Source: an uncultured Verrucomicrobiota bacterium (GTDB taxonomy: Bacteria; Verrucomicrobiota; Verrucomicrobiia; Limisphaerales; AAA164-E04). Taken from it: a stretch of 64,000 bases of DNA. The notes below the pieces were generated by a model. It ran no database searches. It saw only the letters and a list, made by a program, of their open reading frames with translations, and was not told the DNA's origin. The first letter of the stretch is position 1, and each line of letters starts with the position of its first letter. The position numbers and the translations under genes were made by a program. This document shows positions 15,851-24,759 of the stretch, piece by piece. The stretch covers positions 42,971-106,970 of the forward strand of contig CAYFHO010000003.1 of assembly GCA_964342825.1 (NCBI GenBank), read 5' to 3'.

Positions 15851-16005
15851 GCCGTTTGGGGGCAGGAAGAAATTGGTACGACGACTCCCTCGCCTATCGT
15901 GCTGAGAACCTATCCATTATAGCTTAGCTTGACGAGTGAAAAGTCGAGATTTCGTATTTATTCGAGGCGAAAGAAAATTCAGATCAATTTTTTCCAAGTC
16001 AGGCT

Positions 16006-16032
16006 TTGCACAACGCCCTTGAACCGTATAAT
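16006..16032 (+). promoter_or_regulatory. possible sigma-70 promoter of the DAHP synthase gene
   Basis: TTGCAC (16006-16011), a 15-nt spacer, then a perfect TATAAT (16027-16032), 20 nt before ATG 16052. The spacer is shorter than optimal. Confidence 0.3.
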
Positions 16033-16051
16033 GCCTCACCACTAAAACAGT

Positions 16052-17113
16052 ATGATACAGGATACAGACGATTTAAGGATACAGTCGCTTCACCCGTTGC
16101 TTTCGCCCGCCATCTTACAGGAGGAGATACCCCTCTCAGAAAAAGCATCTGTGGTAGTTTCAAACGCGCGTCTCGAGGCTGAGCAGATTATTCGCGGTCA
16201 AAATGATCGCCTGCTGGTCATTACCGGACCTTGCTCCATCCATGACACCAAGGCAGCAATGGAATATGCAGAGAAACTCAAAGCAACATGTGAGCAGTTT
16301 AAGGAAGATCTTTGCATTTTGATGCGTGTTTATTTTGAGAAGCCTAGAACAACCGTCGGTTGGAAGGGTTTGATCAATGATCCAAATATCGACAACAGCT
16401 TTAAGATCAACCAGGGATTACGACAAGCTAGGCAATTGCTTCAGAACCTGGCCGACATGGAAATCCCTGCGGCAACCGAATTTCTCGACACCATCGTTCC
16501 CCAATTCATTGCTGACTTGATCGCATGGGGAGCTATCGGAGCCCGCACAACGGAAAGTCAGGTTCATCGTGAACTTGCTTCAGGCCTGTCCATGCCTGTG
16601 GGATTTAAGAATGGAACAGATGGAAACGTACAAATTGCAATTGATGCAGTCAGTGCTTCCAGACAGCCTCACCATTTCCTTTCAGTCACCAAACAGGGAA
16701 TTGCCGCTATTGTTCAGACAAAAGGCAATGATAGCTGCCACCTGATATTGCGTGGCTCCAAAGCTGGCCCCAACTACGATAAAGACAGTATCCAGAAGGT
16801 CTGTGACGCACTCCAAAAACGTCAGTTGCACCAGGCAGTCATGGTCGATTGCAGCCATGGAAATTCGGCAAAAGACCATCGCAAACAACCTGAAGTTGCA
16901 GAATCCGTTGCGGAACAGATCGCCAATGGGTCGACGCAGATCTCAGGAGTCATGCTCGAAAGTCATCTGGTCGAAGGGAATCAATCCTACAAACCCGATG
17001 GTAGCTCCGTTTATGGAAAAAGCATTACGGATGCGTGTATGTCTTGGGATCAAACACTGCCTGTGCTGGAAAAACTGGCTTCGGCGGTGAGCAAGCGACG
17101 TCATTCCAGTTAG
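16052..17113 (+). CDS. aroG: 3-deoxy-7-phosphoheptulonate (DAHP) synthase, class I
   Basis: 353 aa. Motifs: LLVITGPCSIHD, YFEKPRTTVGWKGLINDP, GARTTESQVHRELASG. Which isozyme (F/G/H) it is cannot be resolved. Confidence 0.85.
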   Translation: MIQDTDDLRIQSLHPLLSPAILQEEIPLSEKASVVVSNARLEAEQIIRGQNDRLLVITGPCSIHDTKAAMEYAEKLKATCEQFKEDLCILMRVYFEKPRTTVGWKGLINDPNIDNSFKINQGLRQARQLLQNLADMEIPAATEFLDTIVPQFIADLIAWGAIGARTTESQVHRELASGLSMPVGFKNGTDGNVQIAIDAVSASRQPHHFLSVTKQGIAAIVQTKGNDSCHLILRGSKAGPNYDKDSIQKVCDALQKRQLHQAVMVDCSHGNSAKDHRKQPEVAESVAEQIANGSTQISGVMLESHLVEGNQSYKPDGSSVYGKSITDACMSWDQTLPVLEKLASAVSKRRHSS

Positions 17114-19209: not shown

Positions 19210-20379
19210 ATGAAATTTAACAAATGGACAGTCGCACTGGCAGCCGCAGGGTTAGTCAGTTTTGGACACAATACGCAAGCGGAAGAAGCCGGCAATGCCG
19301 TGATGACCGCTCTCTCGAAAACCACCCTCAGCGGTTATGTTGACACCTCGGTGTCTTGGTCTGACACAAGTGCAGCCGTACCTCTATGGGGTCGTGTTGC
19401 CTATCAGAACACCGCAAAGATGGACGGATTCAATCTGGACGTCATCGGGTTGACCCTGGAACAGCCACTGGATGAAAGTGACTGGGCCGCTGGTTACCAC
19501 GTTGATCTCTTGATCGGTCCTGATGCTAGCTGGTACTCTGGCATTTCTCCAATCGCAACAGCTGGTGCAGCAAATGATACCATTGGTATCAAGCAAGCCT
19601 ACGTTGCTACCCGTGCTCCTATCGGAAACGGACTGGACCTCAAATTGGGTGTTTACGACGCAATCATCGGATACGAAGTATTCACCAATGGAGCCAACCC
19701 TAACTACAGCCGCTCCATGGCTTACAACTTGGAACCATTCTCCCACACTGGAGCATTGGCTTCCTACCAGGTCAACGAAATGATCGGATTGAGCGCTGGT
19801 ATTGCAAACACCTCCCGCTCAGTACTCAATGATCGCCCTGGCACACTGGGCGCCAGCTCATCACACTTCTCCTACATGGCAGCGATCGCAATCGTTGCAC
19901 CTGAAAGTGCTGGAGTTTTGAGCGGAGCAACCTTGTATGCCGGTTTCCTCGATGGTCTCGCAGGAAACACAAGCACCCAGCCTGACACCGTTAACTACTA
20001 CGTCGGTGCGGCACTTCCAACCCCTGTTGAAGGTTTGGCCTTGGGTCTTGCATACGATCGTGTTGAAGACGCACCAGCTGGTGTTGCAGGTATCGACGCT
20101 GACGTGATCGGTGCTTATGCCTCTTACCAGGCTACCGATAAACTGGCTGTTCATGGACGTATCGAATACCTCAGCGGTGACGCAGGTGTTCTTGGCTACG
20201 GCGGTGTAGACGACGAAGAATTGCTCGGTTTGACCGCTACATTGGATTACAGCCTCTGGGACAATGTCATCACCCGTCTGGAAGGTCGCTGGGACCAACA
20301 GTTGGATGACAATCCTGACGCTTATGGCAGCGGTGATGATGTATTCACCCTGACCTTGAATGCGATCTACAACTTCTAA
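19210..20379 (+). CDS. outer-membrane beta-barrel porin-like protein
   Basis: Signal peptide ending AEE, alternating amphipathic beta-strand pattern, and a C-terminal aromatic residue (YNF) typical of outer-membrane proteins. Confidence 0.6.
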   Translation: MKFNKWTVALAAAGLVSFGHNTQAEEAGNAVMTALSKTTLSGYVDTSVSWSDTSAAVPLWGRVAYQNTAKMDGFNLDVIGLTLEQPLDESDWAAGYHVDLLIGPDASWYSGISPIATAGAANDTIGIKQAYVATRAPIGNGLDLKLGVYDAIIGYEVFTNGANPNYSRSMAYNLEPFSHTGALASYQVNEMIGLSAGIANTSRSVLNDRPGTLGASSSHFSYMAAIAIVAPESAGVLSGATLYAGFLDGLAGNTSTQPDTVNYYVGAALPTPVEGLALGLAYDRVEDAPAGVAGIDADVIGAYASYQATDKLAVHGRIEYLSGDAGVLGYGGVDDEELLGLTATLDYSLWDNVITRLEGRWDQQLDDNPDAYGSGDDVFTLTLNAIYNF

Positions 20380-20405: not shown

Positions 20406-20438
20406 GGCCCCGTGAACATAAGTTCGCGGGGCTTTTTT
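20406..20438 (+). terminator. intrinsic terminator after the porin gene
   Basis: Stem of about 8 bp (GCCCCGTG/CGCGGGGC, including one G-U pair), a 10-nt loop, then TTTTTT (20433-20438). Confidence 0.6.
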
Positions 20439-20486
20439 GTGCGCACCCTTGTATCGCCGATGGAGGGTGATATATTGCTGTTGTCT

Positions 20487-21512
20487 ATGAATCACAAAGT
20501 CAAAATCTCTTTGTTATTATTACTGTCGTGCGGAGTTTTTAGCTCCGTGAGCACCTCAAATGCAGCGGAAGGATCCACTGATTTTGATCAGGCGAAAAAA
20601 GCCGAATTAAGGGAGCTTGCCAATAGTCTTTTCGGCCCATTGCCGGATGCCATGCCAGGATCGGAAAACGATACAGACTACCTTCGACACTTGGGGGAAA
20701 AGCTTTATTTCGACACCAGGCTTTCCAAAAACAACAGTATCTCATGTAATTCATGCCACCGCGTGGATCAGGGTCTGGGTGGAGTGGACAACGCTTCAGG
20801 TTCCACAGGTGCTTTCGGTGACATCGGTGATCGAAATGCTCCAACCGTGCTGAATGCTGGTTTTCAACTGGCCCAGTTCTGGGACGGCAGAGCTGAAGAT
20901 TTAAAGGCACAAGCTAAAGGTCCCATACTGAATCCTGTTGAAATGGCCATGCCGCATGAAGCAGCGGTTCTAGATCGAATCAGGCTCGATGACACCTATC
21001 GCTCTCTCTTCAAAAAGGCATTTCCAAAATCAAACCCAGCCATCACTTATGACAATGTAGCCGAGGCGATTGCTGCATTCGAGCGGACTCTCATCACGGA
21101 GGACCGGTTTGATGATTTCCTGGGAGGGGATGATGAAGCACTTACGCAGAAAGAACTGGAAGGTTTGGAAACATTCACTGCCATAGGATGCACCACCTGC
21201 CACACCGGACCGCTCTTGGGAGGCTCCATGTATCAAAAAGTCGGACTTGTGAATCCATACGAAAATTTTAGTGATATTGGACGTGAAGCTGTGACTAAGG
21301 ATGAAAACGATAAATATAAGTTCAAGGTGCCCACCTTGCGTAATGTTGCGATCACGGAACCTTATTTCCATGACGGGGGTGTGGCTACGCTTGGATTTGC
21401 TGTTCGAAAAATGGCCTACATGCAGTTAGGTCTTCAACTGACTTCGGAACAAACAGAGTCTATTGTGGCTTTTCTGGGGGCATTGACCGACAAGTCACGC
21501 TCAGGGAAATAG
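20487..21512 (+). CDS. di-haem cytochrome c peroxidase (CcpA/MauG family)
   Basis: Signal peptide from ATG 20487. Two CxxCH haem motifs (CNSCH, CTTCH) and the segment PTLRNV...PYFHDG. Confidence 0.85.
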   Translation: MNHKVKISLLLLLSCGVFSSVSTSNAAEGSTDFDQAKKAELRELANSLFGPLPDAMPGSENDTDYLRHLGEKLYFDTRLSKNNSISCNSCHRVDQGLGGVDNASGSTGAFGDIGDRNAPTVLNAGFQLAQFWDGRAEDLKAQAKGPILNPVEMAMPHEAAVLDRIRLDDTYRSLFKKAFPKSNPAITYDNVAEAIAAFERTLITEDRFDDFLGGDDEALTQKELEGLETFTAIGCTTCHTGPLLGGSMYQKVGLVNPYENFSDIGREAVTKDENDKYKFKVPTLRNVAITEPYFHDGGVATLGFAVRKMAYMQLGLQLTSEQTESIVAFLGALTDKSRSGK

Positions 21513-21540
21513 GGACCGAATCAACTTAGAAAACAGAAAA

Positions 21541-21567
21541 CCCCCTTGAAATGAACTTTCAAGGGGG
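21541..21567. terminator. bidirectional intrinsic terminator between the convergent ccp and ilvB genes
   Basis: Perfect 10-bp stem CCCCCTTGAA/TTCAAGGGGG with a 7-nt loop, flanked by an A-rich tract upstream and TTTTGTTT downstream. Confidence 0.7.
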
Positions 21568-21599
21568 TTTTGTTTAAATAGAAACCAGACAAACTTCGA

Positions 21600-23486
21600 T
21601 CAAGAAATAATCATATCGGCAACTGTGTGTGCAGCTGGAATGAAGGGTAGGACGTGCTCGGTGTATGGAACGACCACATCCAAAAGATATGGTTGATCTG
21701 AATCAAGCATCCTCTGCATGGCAGCCTTAAGATCCTTCCTGAACATGACTCGCTCGCAGGGGACATTAAACCCTTTGGCCATGGCAACATAATCCGGGTA
21801 AATGGCTTTCATGTTTTCAGGATCACCCAGGTAAGTATTGCCACGATTGCCCTGATAAAAACGGTCTTCCCACTGCATGACCATTCCAAGATGCTGATTA
21901 TTGAGGACAATTGCTTTGGCTGCGATTTTTTCAATATGAGCGGTCGCCAGCTCCTGAATGTTCATCAAGAATGAGCCATCCCCGTCAATATCGATAACAT
22001 GTTTGTCGGGGCACGCTACCTTGGCCCCCATGGCCGCAGGATAGCCAAAGCCCATGGACCCCAGACCTGCGCTGGTAATATACCTGCGTGGCTCATCATA
22101 TTTAAACCATTGCCCAGCCCACATCTGGTGCTGCCCCACCCCAGTGGTGATGATGGCGTCACCACCTGTCAATTCATAGAGCATGTCAATGGTCATTTGG
22201 GGCAGTATGACTTGATCCTCCATACCTTGAAGGTGATCTCTCATGTGCTGTGAACGCATGACCTCTTCATCCACACTGTAACGGAAAGCCCCACGTTGTT
22301 TCCAATCCTCAATGCGCCGATGCCAGGCATCGAACTTGTTTTGGATAGGACGTTTTCGAATCATCTCGACCAAGCGGCCCAGTGCGTACTTCACATCACT
22401 AACGACTGGCAATTGAACCTTACGATTCTTGTTATGCTCGGACTCATCGATATCAACGTGAACAATGGTTCCTTTTTCGCAAAATTTTTCTACCTTGCCG
22501 GTCACTCGATCATCAAATCGAACACCAAAAGCAAGCAGGAGATCTGCACCAGGGTGAACCTCTGTAACTCGAACTTCGCCGTTGGCATCAGCTTCCTTCT
22601 TGAATTCACCACTTACCGCCCAATTCGCAAATGCTGCCCCATGCATGCCGAGCCACCTCAAGGAGAGCGGATCCGTTTCAGGAAAGGCCCCGCACCCCAT
22701 GATGGTCGAAGTTACAGGAATACCAGTCAAACGCACCAGCTCACGGAGTTCGTGATGGGCTTCACCACTGATGATGCCACCACCGACATACAGAACCGGA
22801 CGTTCTGCTTTTTGGATCAGGCCAACGATCTCGTTTAATTCCAAATCGCTTGCTCGACGCATCGGGTCGTATCCGCGAATGTTGACTGATTTTGGAAAAA
22901 CCGGTTGAGCTTTTGCCTGTTGAATATTTTTCGGAATGTCAATGACGACGGGCCCTGGTCGCCCCGTTGAGGCGATGTGGAAAGCTTCCTTGACCAGTCT
23001 GGGGATGTCGGCGATGTCGGTAACCAGAAAACTGTGCTTCACAATGGGAAGGGTCATCCCAAAGAAATCTGTTTCCTGAAAAGCGCCCTTCCCGATCATA
23101 GCCTGAGGAACCTGCCCCGTAATGGCAACCAATGGAGTCGAGTCCATGAAGGCGTCCGCGATACCAGTCACCAAGTTGGTGGCACCTGGTCCACTTGTTG
23201 CCATACACACGCCAGGCTTGCCTGATGCTCTGGCGTAACCTTCAGCCGCAAAAACACCCCCTTGTTCATGCCGGGGAAGAATAACTCGGATCTTGTCTGA
23301 TCGAGTCAATGCTTGGTGAAGTTCCATACTGGCACCACCAGGGTAGGCAAATATGGTATCGACCATTTCTCGCTCCAATGCAGCTACAAGGATTTCGCTG
23401 CCACTCATTGTGGGACCGATTTCGGGTTTGTCGTTGGTGTTGGACTCAATGTCCGTTCCTGACTTTTTTGTTTTGGTATCGCTCAT
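21600..23486 (-). CDS. ilvB: acetolactate synthase (acetohydroxy-acid synthase) large subunit
   Basis: 628 aa. Thiamine-diphosphate motifs [15 protein letters not shown] ... [10 protein letters not shown], and N-terminus [24 protein letters not shown]. Confidence 0.9.
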
Positions 23487-23526
23487 TGCGGTTTTTTGGT
23501 TTCAAACAGCCGGCCTGCCTGAGTCA

Positions 23527-23559
23527 TAAAAAAACCCACGACCGTTTCCAGCCGTGGGT
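23527..23559 (-). terminator. intrinsic terminator in the ilvB leader (candidate attenuator)
   Basis: Read on the minus strand: ACCCACGGCU-GGAAAC-GGUCGUGGGU (10 bp including 2 G-U pairs), then UUUUUUU. It ends only 41 nt upstream of the ilvB ATG. Confidence 0.65.
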
Positions 23560-23577
23560 TGTTGTCAAAAAATCTTC

Positions 23578-23679
23578 TTAGCATCGACAAGCCCCGGCCA
23601 GTTGGAGTACGACTACCACTACACTCTGCAGTGGAAGGACTCCCGGACCAAAGACGACCTGTCGTAGATTGTTTCTCAT
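23578..23679 (-). CDS. putative ilvB leader peptide (33 codons, Val/Leu-rich)
   Basis: Hand-translated: MRNNLRQVVFGPGVLPLQSVVVVVLQLAGACRC. It has five consecutive Val codons (23608-23622). The TAA stop lies 18 nt upstream of the terminator stem. It is below the size cut-off of the ORF track. Confidence 0.5.
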   Translation of the reverse strand: MRNNLRQVVFGPGVLPLQSVVVVVLQLAGACRC

Positions 23680-23757
23680 ATAAGAAACAGGACTATTAAC
23701 GAAACAAATCGAAGAGGTCAAATGCGAAATGTTCAAAAAAACTGCCCTGGCCGATGA

Positions 23758-24759
23758 TTAGAGGCTGTTTCTCGGATACAAAACGATGAATCCATCATTT
23801 ACTTCCACCCGGTCCAATGCCAATGCCAAGTCATGCAATCTGGAATGGACCCTGAACAATCGATTTAAGGCACGTTTCTGGACGGGCTCTGCAATCACAT
23901 TCATAATTCCATTTCCTTGATAGATAATGGACTCAAACATGTCACCCGTCGAATCTTTAGAAAGTGCCAGGTTAGCTTTCACGGACTTGGTAGATGAAGA
24001 TATTTTCACATCCTTTCCCAACCAACCCAAAGGAATGTTAGCAATACGTTTTAGTCCATTGGAAGCCATCTGCCGCACACTTGAGTTGTGAATGCGGTGC
24101 AACCATCGATGAAAATTCTTGTGATTAACATTCAGAGAATCAACTGCAAGTCGTATTTGGCCGCCATGCATACCCAGTCTAAAAGCACCAGATCCTTTGA
24201 CGTGGATAGGATCGCTACCAAAAAATTTTGAGTCGCCAATATTGATATCGAAGAAAGTCTGCACACGGTTTTTGTGAATCTTTACCGAGGCTGAATCACG
24301 TAAATTACCCAATCGAGTGTCGTGCTTTAAGAAAGCATTTACTTCTCTTTCCCCGAGGCGAATGGGCTTTTGAGCATTACCAGCTGAAGCTAGTGTAAAG
24401 AACTGATGCAGTTTGTCCTTAACAACCTTAAATTCTTCAAACTTGATTTCCTCCTCGGGATTCAACTGTTCTTGTGTCGAAGAAAAACCCAGCTCTACTT
24501 TGCTTTGATTCATTTCAGGAACCAAAACAGATTTCATGACCAAAACGGTCACCAGCGCGAAAAGAGAAATTCCGGCCAAGGTAAAGGCTGCGAAGCTAAG
24601 AAGAATCATTGAAGGATTGATCCGCTTCGGGCGTGACTCAATGACATGCTGGTCACGCTGCTCGTGTCGCGTCAGCGTCTCTAAGGACCCATACAATCCA
24701 CTCTGTTGAAGATCAGGTTGCTGAGAAATAAGATTTGGCTGTTCAATTAAGTCTTTCAT
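23758..24759 (-). CDS. hypothetical single-pass membrane protein
   Basis: 333-aa ORF with one transmembrane segment (MILLSFAAFTLAGISLFALVTVLVM). No recognised domain. Confidence 0.55.
   Translation of the reverse strand: MKDLIEQPNLISQQPDLQQSGLYGSLETLTRHEQRDQHVIESRPKRINPSMILLSFAAFTLAGISLFALVTVLVMKSVLVPEMNQSKVELGFSSTQEQLNPEEEIKFEEFKVVKDKLHQFFTLASAGNAQKPIRLGEREVNAFLKHDTRLGNLRDSASVKIHKNRVQTFFDINIGDSKFFGSDPIHVKGSGAFRLGMHGGQIRLAVDSLNVNHKNFHRWLHRIHNSSVRQMASNGLKRIANIPLGWLGKDVKISSSTKSVKANLALSKDSTGDMFESIIYQGNGIMNVIAEPVQKRALNRLFRVHSRLHDLALALDRVEVNDGFIVLYPRNSL

Follow-up and report, generated by a model that had tools for sequence, protein, structure and literature searches.

A predicted leader-peptide transcription attenuator upstream of ilvB in Verrucomicrobiota

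In a 64,000-nucleotide (nt) stretch of DNA from an uncultured Verrucomicrobiota bacterium (contig CAYFHO010000003.1; the whole stretch is referred to here as the window), the biosynthetic acetolactate synthase gene ilvB is preceded by a short open reading frame (ORF) rich in Val codons and by an intrinsic terminator. We put the probability at roughly 0.85 that this leader is a ribosome-mediated leader-peptide transcription attenuator, which would tune ilvB to the supply of charged transfer RNA (tRNA) for Val, and probably for Leu. Acetolactate synthase catalyzes the first step of Val and Leu (and Ile) synthesis and, as the first enzyme of the Val/Leu branch, is a sensible point at which to sense these two amino acids. 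A first-pass annotation of the sequence had proposed a classical ribosome-mediated attenuator at this site; promoter, leader, terminator, antiterminator, and anti-antiterminator are all present in the predicted structure and conserved in relatives.

RESULTS

Organization of the ilvB leader

Coordinates are positions within the window, and features lie on the minus strand unless marked otherwise. The leader and its gene comprise the following parts.

23716-23721 (-): −35 box TTGACC, a promoter-like site by scan, with TTGAC invariant in 64 of 64 aligned sequences
23692-23698 (-): −10 box, TAATAG (17-nt spacer) or AATAGT (18-nt spacer); family consensus TAnnnT
23578-23679 (-): leader ORF of 33 codons plus TAA, with ATG at 23679 and TAA at 23580-23578, read directly from the sequence
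23656-23664 (-): segment A, CGACAGGUC (codons R-Q-V), 5′ strand of the anti-antiterminator, pairing with 23593-23585 in the window fold
23658-23653 and 23640-23638 (-): the other Val codons of the leader (8, 9, and 14), read from the sequence
23604-23651 (-): inner hairpins of the 1:2 fold, holding the Val run (23637-23627 with 23623-23613; 23643-23638 with 23610-23604)
23608-23622 (-): regulatory run of five Val codons, GUA GUG GUA GUC GUA (V20 to V24), read from the sequence; a Val run or a V/I/L run of at least three is kept across the family
23584-23601 (-): segment 2, 5′ half of the antiterminator (codons L-A-G-A-C-R), made up of B, CUGGCCGGGG (23601-23592), and B′, UUGUCGA (23590-23584)
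23562-23568 (-): segment C, UUGACAA, a post-stop copy of box A, pairing with B′ to give the apical antiterminator helix with the stop codon in its loop
23528-23560 (-): intrinsic terminator, with 5′ arm 23560-23549, GAAA loop 23548-23545, 3′ arm 23544-23533, and U run 23534-23528
21600-23486 (-): ilvB, biosynthetic acetolactate synthase large subunit, 628 amino acids (aa), TIGR00118 score 668 bits against a cutoff of 538, with three thiamine pyrophosphate-enzyme Pfam domains

The leader peptide, MRNNLRQVVFGPGVLPLQSVVVVVLQLAGACRC, is 33 aa long, with 8 Val and 5 Leu in total. The earlier reading had placed the ORF at 23679-23578 with five Val codons at 23622-23608 and 8 Val overall, all of which hold on the minus strand, while its count of 6 Leu was one too many. 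Tandem codons for a product of the pathway are thus found in a short leader ORF, both in the window sequence and in the coding signature of 64 relatives. The stop codon is followed, about 17 to 18 nt on, by the hairpin AACCCACGGCUG-GAAA-CGGUCGUGGGUU (23560-23533), which has 12 base pairs (bp), 7 of them G-C, and is followed by U7. The first-pass annotation had recognized both hairpin and U7 but gave the stem as 10 bp. This predicted intrinsic terminator sits between the leader ORF and ilvB, with 41 nt from the end of the U run to the ilvB ATG (23486), and the identity of the downstream gene as ilvB agrees with the TIGR00118 assignment.

Chance is an unlikely source of these features. Dinucleotide shuffles of the 271-nt intergenic region (n = 5,000) yielded no ATG-initiated ORF with a Val run of at least five and two with a run of at least four; 71 of the same shuffles gave a hairpin of at least 10 bp with a T-rich tail. 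The terminator motif occurs once in the window against 0 expected, and, of all terminators in the window, the one in the ilvB leader alone follows a small ORF that repeats one residue several times in a row. Scanning the window for more units resembling an attenuator turned up none. The plus-strand region 15851-17113 holds a DAHP (3-deoxy-D-arabino-heptulosonate 7-phosphate) synthase gene (aroF/G/H type, TIGR00034 529 bits; 16052-17113), and the 200 nt upstream of this gene have neither an aromatic-run leader ORF nor a terminator. Within the window, leader attenuation of this type is confined to ilvB.

Conservation of the unit among ilvB relatives

Relatives were collected by scanning one genome per species for close ilvB genes, which gave 80 loci (69 to 92% identity) chosen by ilvB similarity alone. 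All 80 appear to be Verrucomicrobiota, many being labeled Limisphaerales, Pedosphaera, or subdivision 3, and all fall in the Planctomycetes-Verrucomicrobia-Chlamydiae (PVC) group. This fits the earlier judgment that the window comes from a PVC-type genome, as its closest ilvB loci are Verrucomicrobiota and several carry the label Limisphaerales.

A script searched for small ORFs that contain three or more consecutive V/I/L residues and stop 12 to 21 nt before a terminator hairpin; it found such an arrangement in 71 of the 80 loci. The window and 63 Verrucomicrobiota loci (64 sequences) then served to build a covariance model (R1), which was searched at E ≤ 1e-5, a threshold that avoids weak reverse-strand matches to the palindromic terminator. 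R1 matched 14 of the remaining 17 loci, none of them used in training, at E ≤ 6e-6. With the 63 training loci, the attenuator unit, consisting of promoter, Val-run ORF of about 25 codons, and near-invariant terminator, is therefore present in 77 of 80; an alignment of ilvB upstream regions had been proposed as a check on whether Val run and hairpin are kept in relatives, and they are kept as a unit in these 77. The model spans the Val run, B and B′, the stop codon, box C, and the terminator, and the window, itself a training sequence, matches it over model positions 1 to 102 (23526-23625, minus strand; 72.1 bits, E = 3e-14). The least similar loci, at 69% ilvB identity, still have the canonical element, which places the family boundary beyond the sampled range.

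Gene neighborhoods were compared among the same loci. The gene upstream of the leader (23758-24759) is common only to the two closest loci, L001 (54% identity) and L002 (two copies), among those compared, and the genes downstream of ilvB vary. Since the flanking genes change in this way, the promoter-leader-terminator unit belongs to ilvB and not to its neighbors. No ilvN or ilvC was recognized downstream of ilvB in the related loci, judging by eye from the first 60 residues of the downstream ORFs, without homology search.

Metagenomes were surveyed by an exact-pattern scan for the terminator motif, which returned at least 120 loci in a set biased by the search pattern; these provided extra sequences outside model training for the structure upstream of the terminator. 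Of the 111 loci long enough on the downstream side, 108 had ilvB there on the same strand, and one of the three others was a chance match inside a coding region. A Val-run leader was present in 110 of the 112 loci with enough upstream sequence, and R1 matched all 100 of the loci tested. Among the metagenome matches listed, the element is seen only in front of ilvB. Members of the family number about 180 related environmental genomes or loci.

Coding signature of the leader ORF

Among the 64 sequences, the leader begins with ATG in 62 and GTG in 2. It ends with TAA (30), TGA (18), or TAG (16) at a conserved position, and its length across the family is 23 to 33 codons. Divided by 3, the spacing from box A to B′ leaves one and the same remainder in 30 of the 32 loci where it could be measured, from which it follows that indels in the leader are in frame. 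Val accounts for 26% of leader residues compared to 7% in ilvB, and Thr for 2.9%. An ATG-initiated ORF across the run is missing from the two remaining frames in at least 58 of 64 sequences. By this signature, the leader ORF behaves as a coding sequence and would be translated.

The leader consensus is M-x4-RQVvLLVVVV-x-GDAVGACR-x. The codon that precedes UGU, for example, can be GCU, UCU, or CCU (A, S, or P): only its first position changes, and the second and third, which are paired, are fixed. On this pattern, residues conserved outside the Val run appear to be explained at the RNA level by pairing, not at the level of the peptide.

Three alternative folds

Family members share a common order of elements: box A UUCGACAAG (codons R-Q-V), a Leu/Val run CUGCUGGUnGUCGUCGUAG, GGCGAC, B (GCCGUnGG), B′ GCUUGUCGAA, and the stop codon, followed by box C UUUCGACAAG (the post-stop copy of A), AACCCACGGCUGG, the loop, CGGUCGUGGGUU, and the U run. 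RNAalifold recovered the terminator alone from a 253-column alignment, the upstream part of which is gappy. Folds were instead assessed by pair counting of explicit structures, and the same structures with their 3′ partners slid by 1 to 3 columns served as controls.

The 1:2 fold, or anti-antiterminator, joins A to B′ and the Val run to GACGAC and B. Pairing in the A:B′ helix reaches 82.9%, with slid controls at 36 to 53% for A:B′ plus the Val-run hairpin, and compensatory changes occur at 5 of its pairs (e.g., GC 21, UA 19, and CG 4 at one). In the window version of this fold, UUGGUC (23651-23646) also pairs with GGCCGG (23599-23594), sequestering the antiterminator strand. The predicted anti-antiterminator overlaps the regulatory codons, and on a thermodynamic model the position of the ribosome would select the fold.

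The 2:3 fold, the antiterminator, is one long two-helix hairpin in which B pairs with the terminator 5′ arm and B′ pairs with C. It is 79.7% paired in the genome-locus alignment (A2), versus 32 to 48% for slid controls, and 87.3% paired in the metagenome alignment (A4; 98 distinct non-training sequences, fitted to the structure), versus 26 to 50%. The B′:C helix shows compensatory change, with CG in 72 and UA in 21 of the 98 metagenome sequences at one pair. In the window, the lower helix joins B, CUGGCCGGGG, to CCCACGGCUGG (23558-23548, the 5′ arm plus the first loop base); by using the 5′ arm, the predicted antiterminator excludes the terminator. The first-pass annotation had nominated 23599-23591 (GGCCGGGGC) as a candidate antiterminator. 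That segment does lie within the 5′ strand of the lower helix (23601-23592), but the second helix, formed by CUUGUCGA (23590-23584) with the post-stop box UUGACAA (23568-23562), had been missed.

The 3:4 fold, the terminator, is 97.7% paired across the family, and three sequences carry an A-U to G-C compensatory change. Together, these pair counts indicate that three mutually exclusive folds, an anti-antiterminator, a two-helix antiterminator, and a terminator, are conserved as modeled. The search for alternative structures suggested earlier thus returned mutually exclusive terminator and antiterminator folds.

Energies and simulated ribosome positions

For the window, the calculated energies are −35.7 kcal/mol for the 1:2 fold (leader ORF alone), −21.8 kcal/mol for the antiterminator, and about −20.3 to −20.9 kcal/mol for the terminator. 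The folds are comparable in energy: family medians are −30.2 kcal/mol for the ORF self-fold (1:2), −24.7 kcal/mol for the antiterminator, and −21.2 kcal/mol for the terminator. Relative to shuffled segment 2, the antiterminator has a z-score of −2.9 in the window and a family median of −3.0.

Ribosome positions were simulated by folding the nascent transcript up to the terminator loop, before the 3′ arm, with the ribosome footprint masked. When the ribosome was stalled at the first or middle Val codon, at least 60% of the terminator 5′ arm was paired upstream in 64 of 64 loci. With the ribosome at the stop codon, this level of pairing was reached in 0 of 64.

Promoter and transcript start

The first-pass annotation had pointed to TTGACC (23721-23716), a 17-nt spacer, and TAATAG as a possible promoter, and these are present, with TTGAC invariant in the 64 sequences. 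The family −10 box, TAnnnT, lies 16 to 18 nt from TTGAC, with T in 61, A in 61, and T in 58 of the 64 sequences at its three consensus positions. Promoter scanning of 23527-23486, between terminator and ilvB, found no promoter-like site; a promoter is thus seen upstream of the leader and none between terminator and gene. It had been argued that this interval leaves too little room for a promoter, a point better replaced by the observation that the whole unit travels with ilvB.

The distance from the −10 box to the leader ATG is 6 to 8 nt in 45 of 64 relatives, and a Shine-Dalgarno-like tetramer precedes the ATG in only 2 of 64. We infer that most family members are leaderless mRNAs. The corresponding distance in the window is 12 to 13 nt, from which a 5′ untranslated region (UTR) of about 5 to 7 nt, without a Shine-Dalgarno sequence, is expected; the transcription start site of the leader would lie accordingly close to its ATG.

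DISCUSSION

Proposed mechanism

From the computed anatomy, conservation, coding signature, and folds, we infer the following course of events, including its start site, kinetics, and response to Val and Leu. Transcription would start from the TTGACC/TAnnnT promoter a few nucleotides before the leader ATG, or at the ATG itself in most relatives (leaderless), and a ribosome would translate the 33-codon leader as RNA polymerase proceeds. If Val-tRNA is plentiful, the ribosome would reach the UAA codon and cover B′ and box C, blocking the antiterminator. The 12-bp hairpin with its U7 would then form, and transcription would stop about 41 nt before ilvB. If Val-tRNA, and probably also Leu-tRNA, is scarce, the ribosome would stall at box A (Val codons 8 and 9) or early in the V20 to V24 run. 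Such a stall would occupy or melt box A and the Val-run hairpins and free segment 2 (CUGGCCGGGG plus UUGUCGA), which would pair with UUGACAA and CCCACGGCUGG as these emerge; the 5′ arm would be sequestered, and polymerase would read into ilvB. In a transcript that is not translated, the 1:2 fold, with its A:B′ stem and inner hairpins, should be the first to form and would keep segment 2 occupied.

Several observations weigh against this model. Minimum free energy folds of the whole leader retain the terminator with any ribosome mask or with none; they are uninformative on switching, which would therefore have to be kinetic. In 51 of 64 loci, the window included, a nascent transcript free of ribosomes already favors the antiterminator at equilibrium, which makes the default state without translation uncertain. 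Only 6 nt separate the end of the Val run from strand B in the window, and a stall at the last codon leaves the 5′ arm 30% paired; a ribosome on the last Val codons would cover B, so that only stalls early in the run or at V8-V9 would antiterminate. The helix between B and the 5′ arm rests on conservation, with a compensatory change at one pair in a single sequence, and its U-A pair is unpaired in about a third to half of sequences. Finally, the window belongs to a divergent sub-family, with LQLAG in place of the consensus GDAVG and an R1 score of 72 bits compared to the 90 to 110 bits of typical members. This sub-family, common to the window, L001, and L160, carries an 8-codon insert (GVLPL...) that forms an inner hairpin.

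Alternative explanations

An additional, Verrucomicrobiota-specific layer would make the element a hybrid switch, through a trans-acting protein or RNA on the hairpin or boxes or through obligatory coupling of leaderless 70S initiation to polymerase. The idea arises from the near-invariance of the terminator-stem core at 69 to 92% ilvB identity, the duplicated UUCGACAAG boxes, and the obligatory 5′-terminal AUG. We regard it as unlikely, as three pairing constraints per strand, together with coding, already explain the conservation and do not require it.

A structured RNA switch that responds to a ligand, a protein, or uncharged tRNA, in the manner of a riboswitch, a T-box, or a protein-mediated switch, would make translation of the ORF irrelevant. 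Constraint at the RNA level is indeed strong: the conserved AVGACR is explained by pairing, with second and third codon positions kept and first positions varying, and the terminator stem is almost invariant across the family. However, the ATG, indels that keep the frame, a stop codon that changes type but not place, and strong Val enrichment in a single frame are not to be expected of an untranslated RNA, and the ribosome footprint positions fit the alternative folds. Beyond three simple helices, no conserved bulge or junction was seen that could serve as a ligand pocket, and no riboswitch or T-box family matched even at E ≤ 10. Rfam searches of the window leader at that threshold gave NsiR1 (16.2 bits, cutoff 39) and His_leader (14.9 bits, cutoff 49) as best matches; for 11 related loci at E ≤ 1, the best was His_leader at 31.6 bits against the cutoff of 49; and the whole window at gathering thresholds returned only a tRNA. 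As no family matched the leader at threshold, we reject the riboswitch, T-box, and described leader families as assignments, and control by an RNA switch of this kind is very improbable.

It is similarly doubtful, to a high degree, that a translated leader acts by other means, whether through Rho access, mRNA stability, or as an mRNA of about 150 nt for a small protein or a small RNA (sRNA) with its own function. Termination would let leader transcripts build up in the cell, the peptide is hydrophobic, and termination itself is predicted from sequence, all of which would suit such a role. Yet outside the Val run the peptide follows RNA pairing and not amino acid properties, and its length varies from 23 to 33 residues. 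The strong hairpin and U run directly before ilvB, with an antiterminator overlapping exactly the 5′ arm, are what terminator control needs, and the element was found only in front of ilvB. Another action of the leader, or a functional peptide or sRNA, is thus unnecessary.

That the hairpin merely terminates the upstream gene (24759-23758), with ilvB expressed from its own promoter and the small ORF fortuitous, is scarcely credible: although that gene lies on the same strand without another convincing terminator between its stop (23758) and the hairpin, which could also stop its read-through, it is kept only in L001 and L002, against 77 of 80 loci in which ilvB comes with promoter, leader, and terminator, the ORF shows coding constraints and a Val run of at least five that arose in 0 of 5,000 shuffles, and the TTGAC/TAnnnT promoter is conserved between upstream gene and leader with none in 23527-23486. 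This explanation was rejected on synteny and the conserved intervening promoter.

Relation to known attenuators

Leader-peptide attenuation is textbook knowledge in Proteobacteria and is documented in Actinobacteria; its paradigms are Escherichia coli ilvBN (leader ivbL), ilvGMEDA (leader ilvL), and the trp and his systems (reviewed in PMC1183508). Like ivbL and ilvL, the Verrucomicrobiota element shows tandem codons for a pathway product, 1:2, 2:3, and 3:4 pairings, an intrinsic terminator before the first structural gene, and a stop codon placed such that a terminating ribosome blocks segment 2. Enterobacterial leaders differ in having a 5′ UTR with a Shine-Dalgarno sequence, and the sequences are unrelated.

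The closest analogue is the ilvBNC attenuator of Corynebacterium glutamicum (the ilvB-II motif). There, a 292-nt regulatory region before the ilvBNC operon encodes the 15-codon leader IlvL, MTIIRLVVVTARRLP (PMC11857589, PMC10272879), and a model of three hairpins, anti-antiterminator, antiterminator, and terminator (AAT/AT/T), has been put forward (PMC11857589, PMC10272879). Transcription starts one nucleotide from the start codon, and dependence on valine has been shown experimentally (PMC11857589). Shared with the Verrucomicrobiota element are a leader ORF rich in Val, Ile, and Leu before ilvB, a leaderless start (in our case a predicted one), and the set of anti-antiterminator, antiterminator, and terminator. 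The two belong to different phyla, C. glutamicum being an actinobacterium, with no detectable sequence relationship, and the Verrucomicrobiota element is set apart by its 23 to 33 codons, a distance of about 41 nt from terminator to gene, a monocistronic ilvB, and the duplicated UUCGACAAG box that flanks segment 2.

Two further RNA motifs of the Breaker laboratory, ilvB-OMG (41 representatives) and the Leptospira ilvB motif, have been reinterpreted as proposed upstream ORF (uORF) attenuators, the uORF of the latter having at least three consecutive Val codons (PMC10272879). They resemble the present element as conserved RNAs before ilvB with an in-frame uORF rich in branched-chain codons, and as candidate attenuators. 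The uORFs of both motifs are Thr-rich, whereas the Verrucomicrobiota leader is not (2.9%). The one supplement row of ilvB-OMG compared, of about 210 nt, looks unrelated to the Verrucomicrobiota element, and the strings CCCACGG and GUCGUGGG occur nowhere in the supplement alignments (PMC10272879). No mention is made there of Verrucomicrobia.

Our literature search found no paper linking Verrucomicrobia with leader-peptide attenuation, although an earlier description in a multi-phylum attenuator survey (Lopatovskaya et al. 2010, PMID 20198868) is possible. The first-pass annotation had considered the mechanism little documented in PVC bacteria, and this agrees with the negative results from Rfam and the literature. 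Overall, no record of leader-peptide attenuation in Verrucomicrobiota was found in Rfam 15 or the searchable literature, and the element described here, judged at the sequence level, has the features of the class and matches no described family.

The mechanistic novelty of the element is little. What it would provide is a well-delimited family of cis-regulatory RNAs in the phylum, comprising about 180 members and described by a covariance model and a clear consensus, in a form usable by annotation pipelines. It would constitute indirect evidence that transcription and translation in these bacteria are coupled closely enough for ribosome-timed control, and it offers a set of probably leaderless mRNAs in a lineage rich in uncultured members. 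As a marker, it would point to ilvB alone, a single gene, as the Val/Leu-controlled step in these genomes, and it flags contigs of metagenome-assembled genomes (MAGs) with implausible taxonomic labels.

Variant loci and neighboring features

A few loci depart from the canonical element, among them L004, L005, and L063, the 3 of the 80 not counted as carrying the unit. L004 (2670-3006), on a Limisphaerales chromosome, has lost promoter, leader ORF, and 5′ arm, and unrelated coding-like sequence takes their place as far as what is left of the 3′ arm, GACGGTCGCGGGC; in L005 (2670-3006), a close relative, a full hairpin is retained. From its sequence, L004 looks like a natural deletion that should leave ilvB unattenuated. 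L005 and L063 have a diverged leader ending in ...GLGIIVRVPAGAC and a hairpin GCCCGCGAUC/GGUUGCGGGC, with no covariance-model match, and L057 (2830-2963) has a 16-codon ORF, MKDVVVRFVVVDVVVD (9 Val), and a different, shorter hairpin, CCACGGCAUGAAAAAGCCGUGG, followed by U8. The variant leaders of L057, L005, and L063 suggest that the regulatory logic persists as the sequence family turns over.

Seven loci (L028, L031, L035, L007, L010, L011, and L080) combine an ilvB gene 70 to 77% identical to that of the window and a Verrucomicrobiota-type leader with the labels Klebsiella pneumoniae, Akkermansia muciniphila or Akkermansia sp., Candidatus Methylomirabilota, Proteobacteria, and Candidatus Sulfotelmatobacter. 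On the basis of these sequences, their contigs are probably mis-binned or mislabeled MAGs. One of these MAG loci (L007, 2640-2720) has a run of about 19 C between the attenuator U run and the ilvB start, which may be an assembly artifact or a homopolymer tract.

Two further window features flank the element and its gene.

23758-24759 (-): upstream gene, 333 aa, with no match to a Pfam or NCBIfam family
21537-21571 (-): ilvB 3′ terminator, from a terminator scan of the window

The gene 3′ of ilvB is convergent (20412-21512, plus strand) and, together with the terminator at 21571-21537, this indicates that ilvB is monocistronic. The junction between ilvB and this MauG-like di-heme peroxidase gene holds a long hairpin flanked by A and U, AAAACCCCCUUGAAAG...CUUUCAAGGGGGUUUU (21537-21571), which scores as a terminator on both strands and is likely bidirectional. 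A strong terminator-like hairpin, GGCCCCGUGAAC...GUUCGCGGGGCU plus U5 (20406-20433, plus strand), lies 3′ of the gene for an OmpL-like porin (19210-20379). Because the GTG start listed for the MauG-like ORF (20412) falls within this hairpin, the ORF probably begins further downstream.

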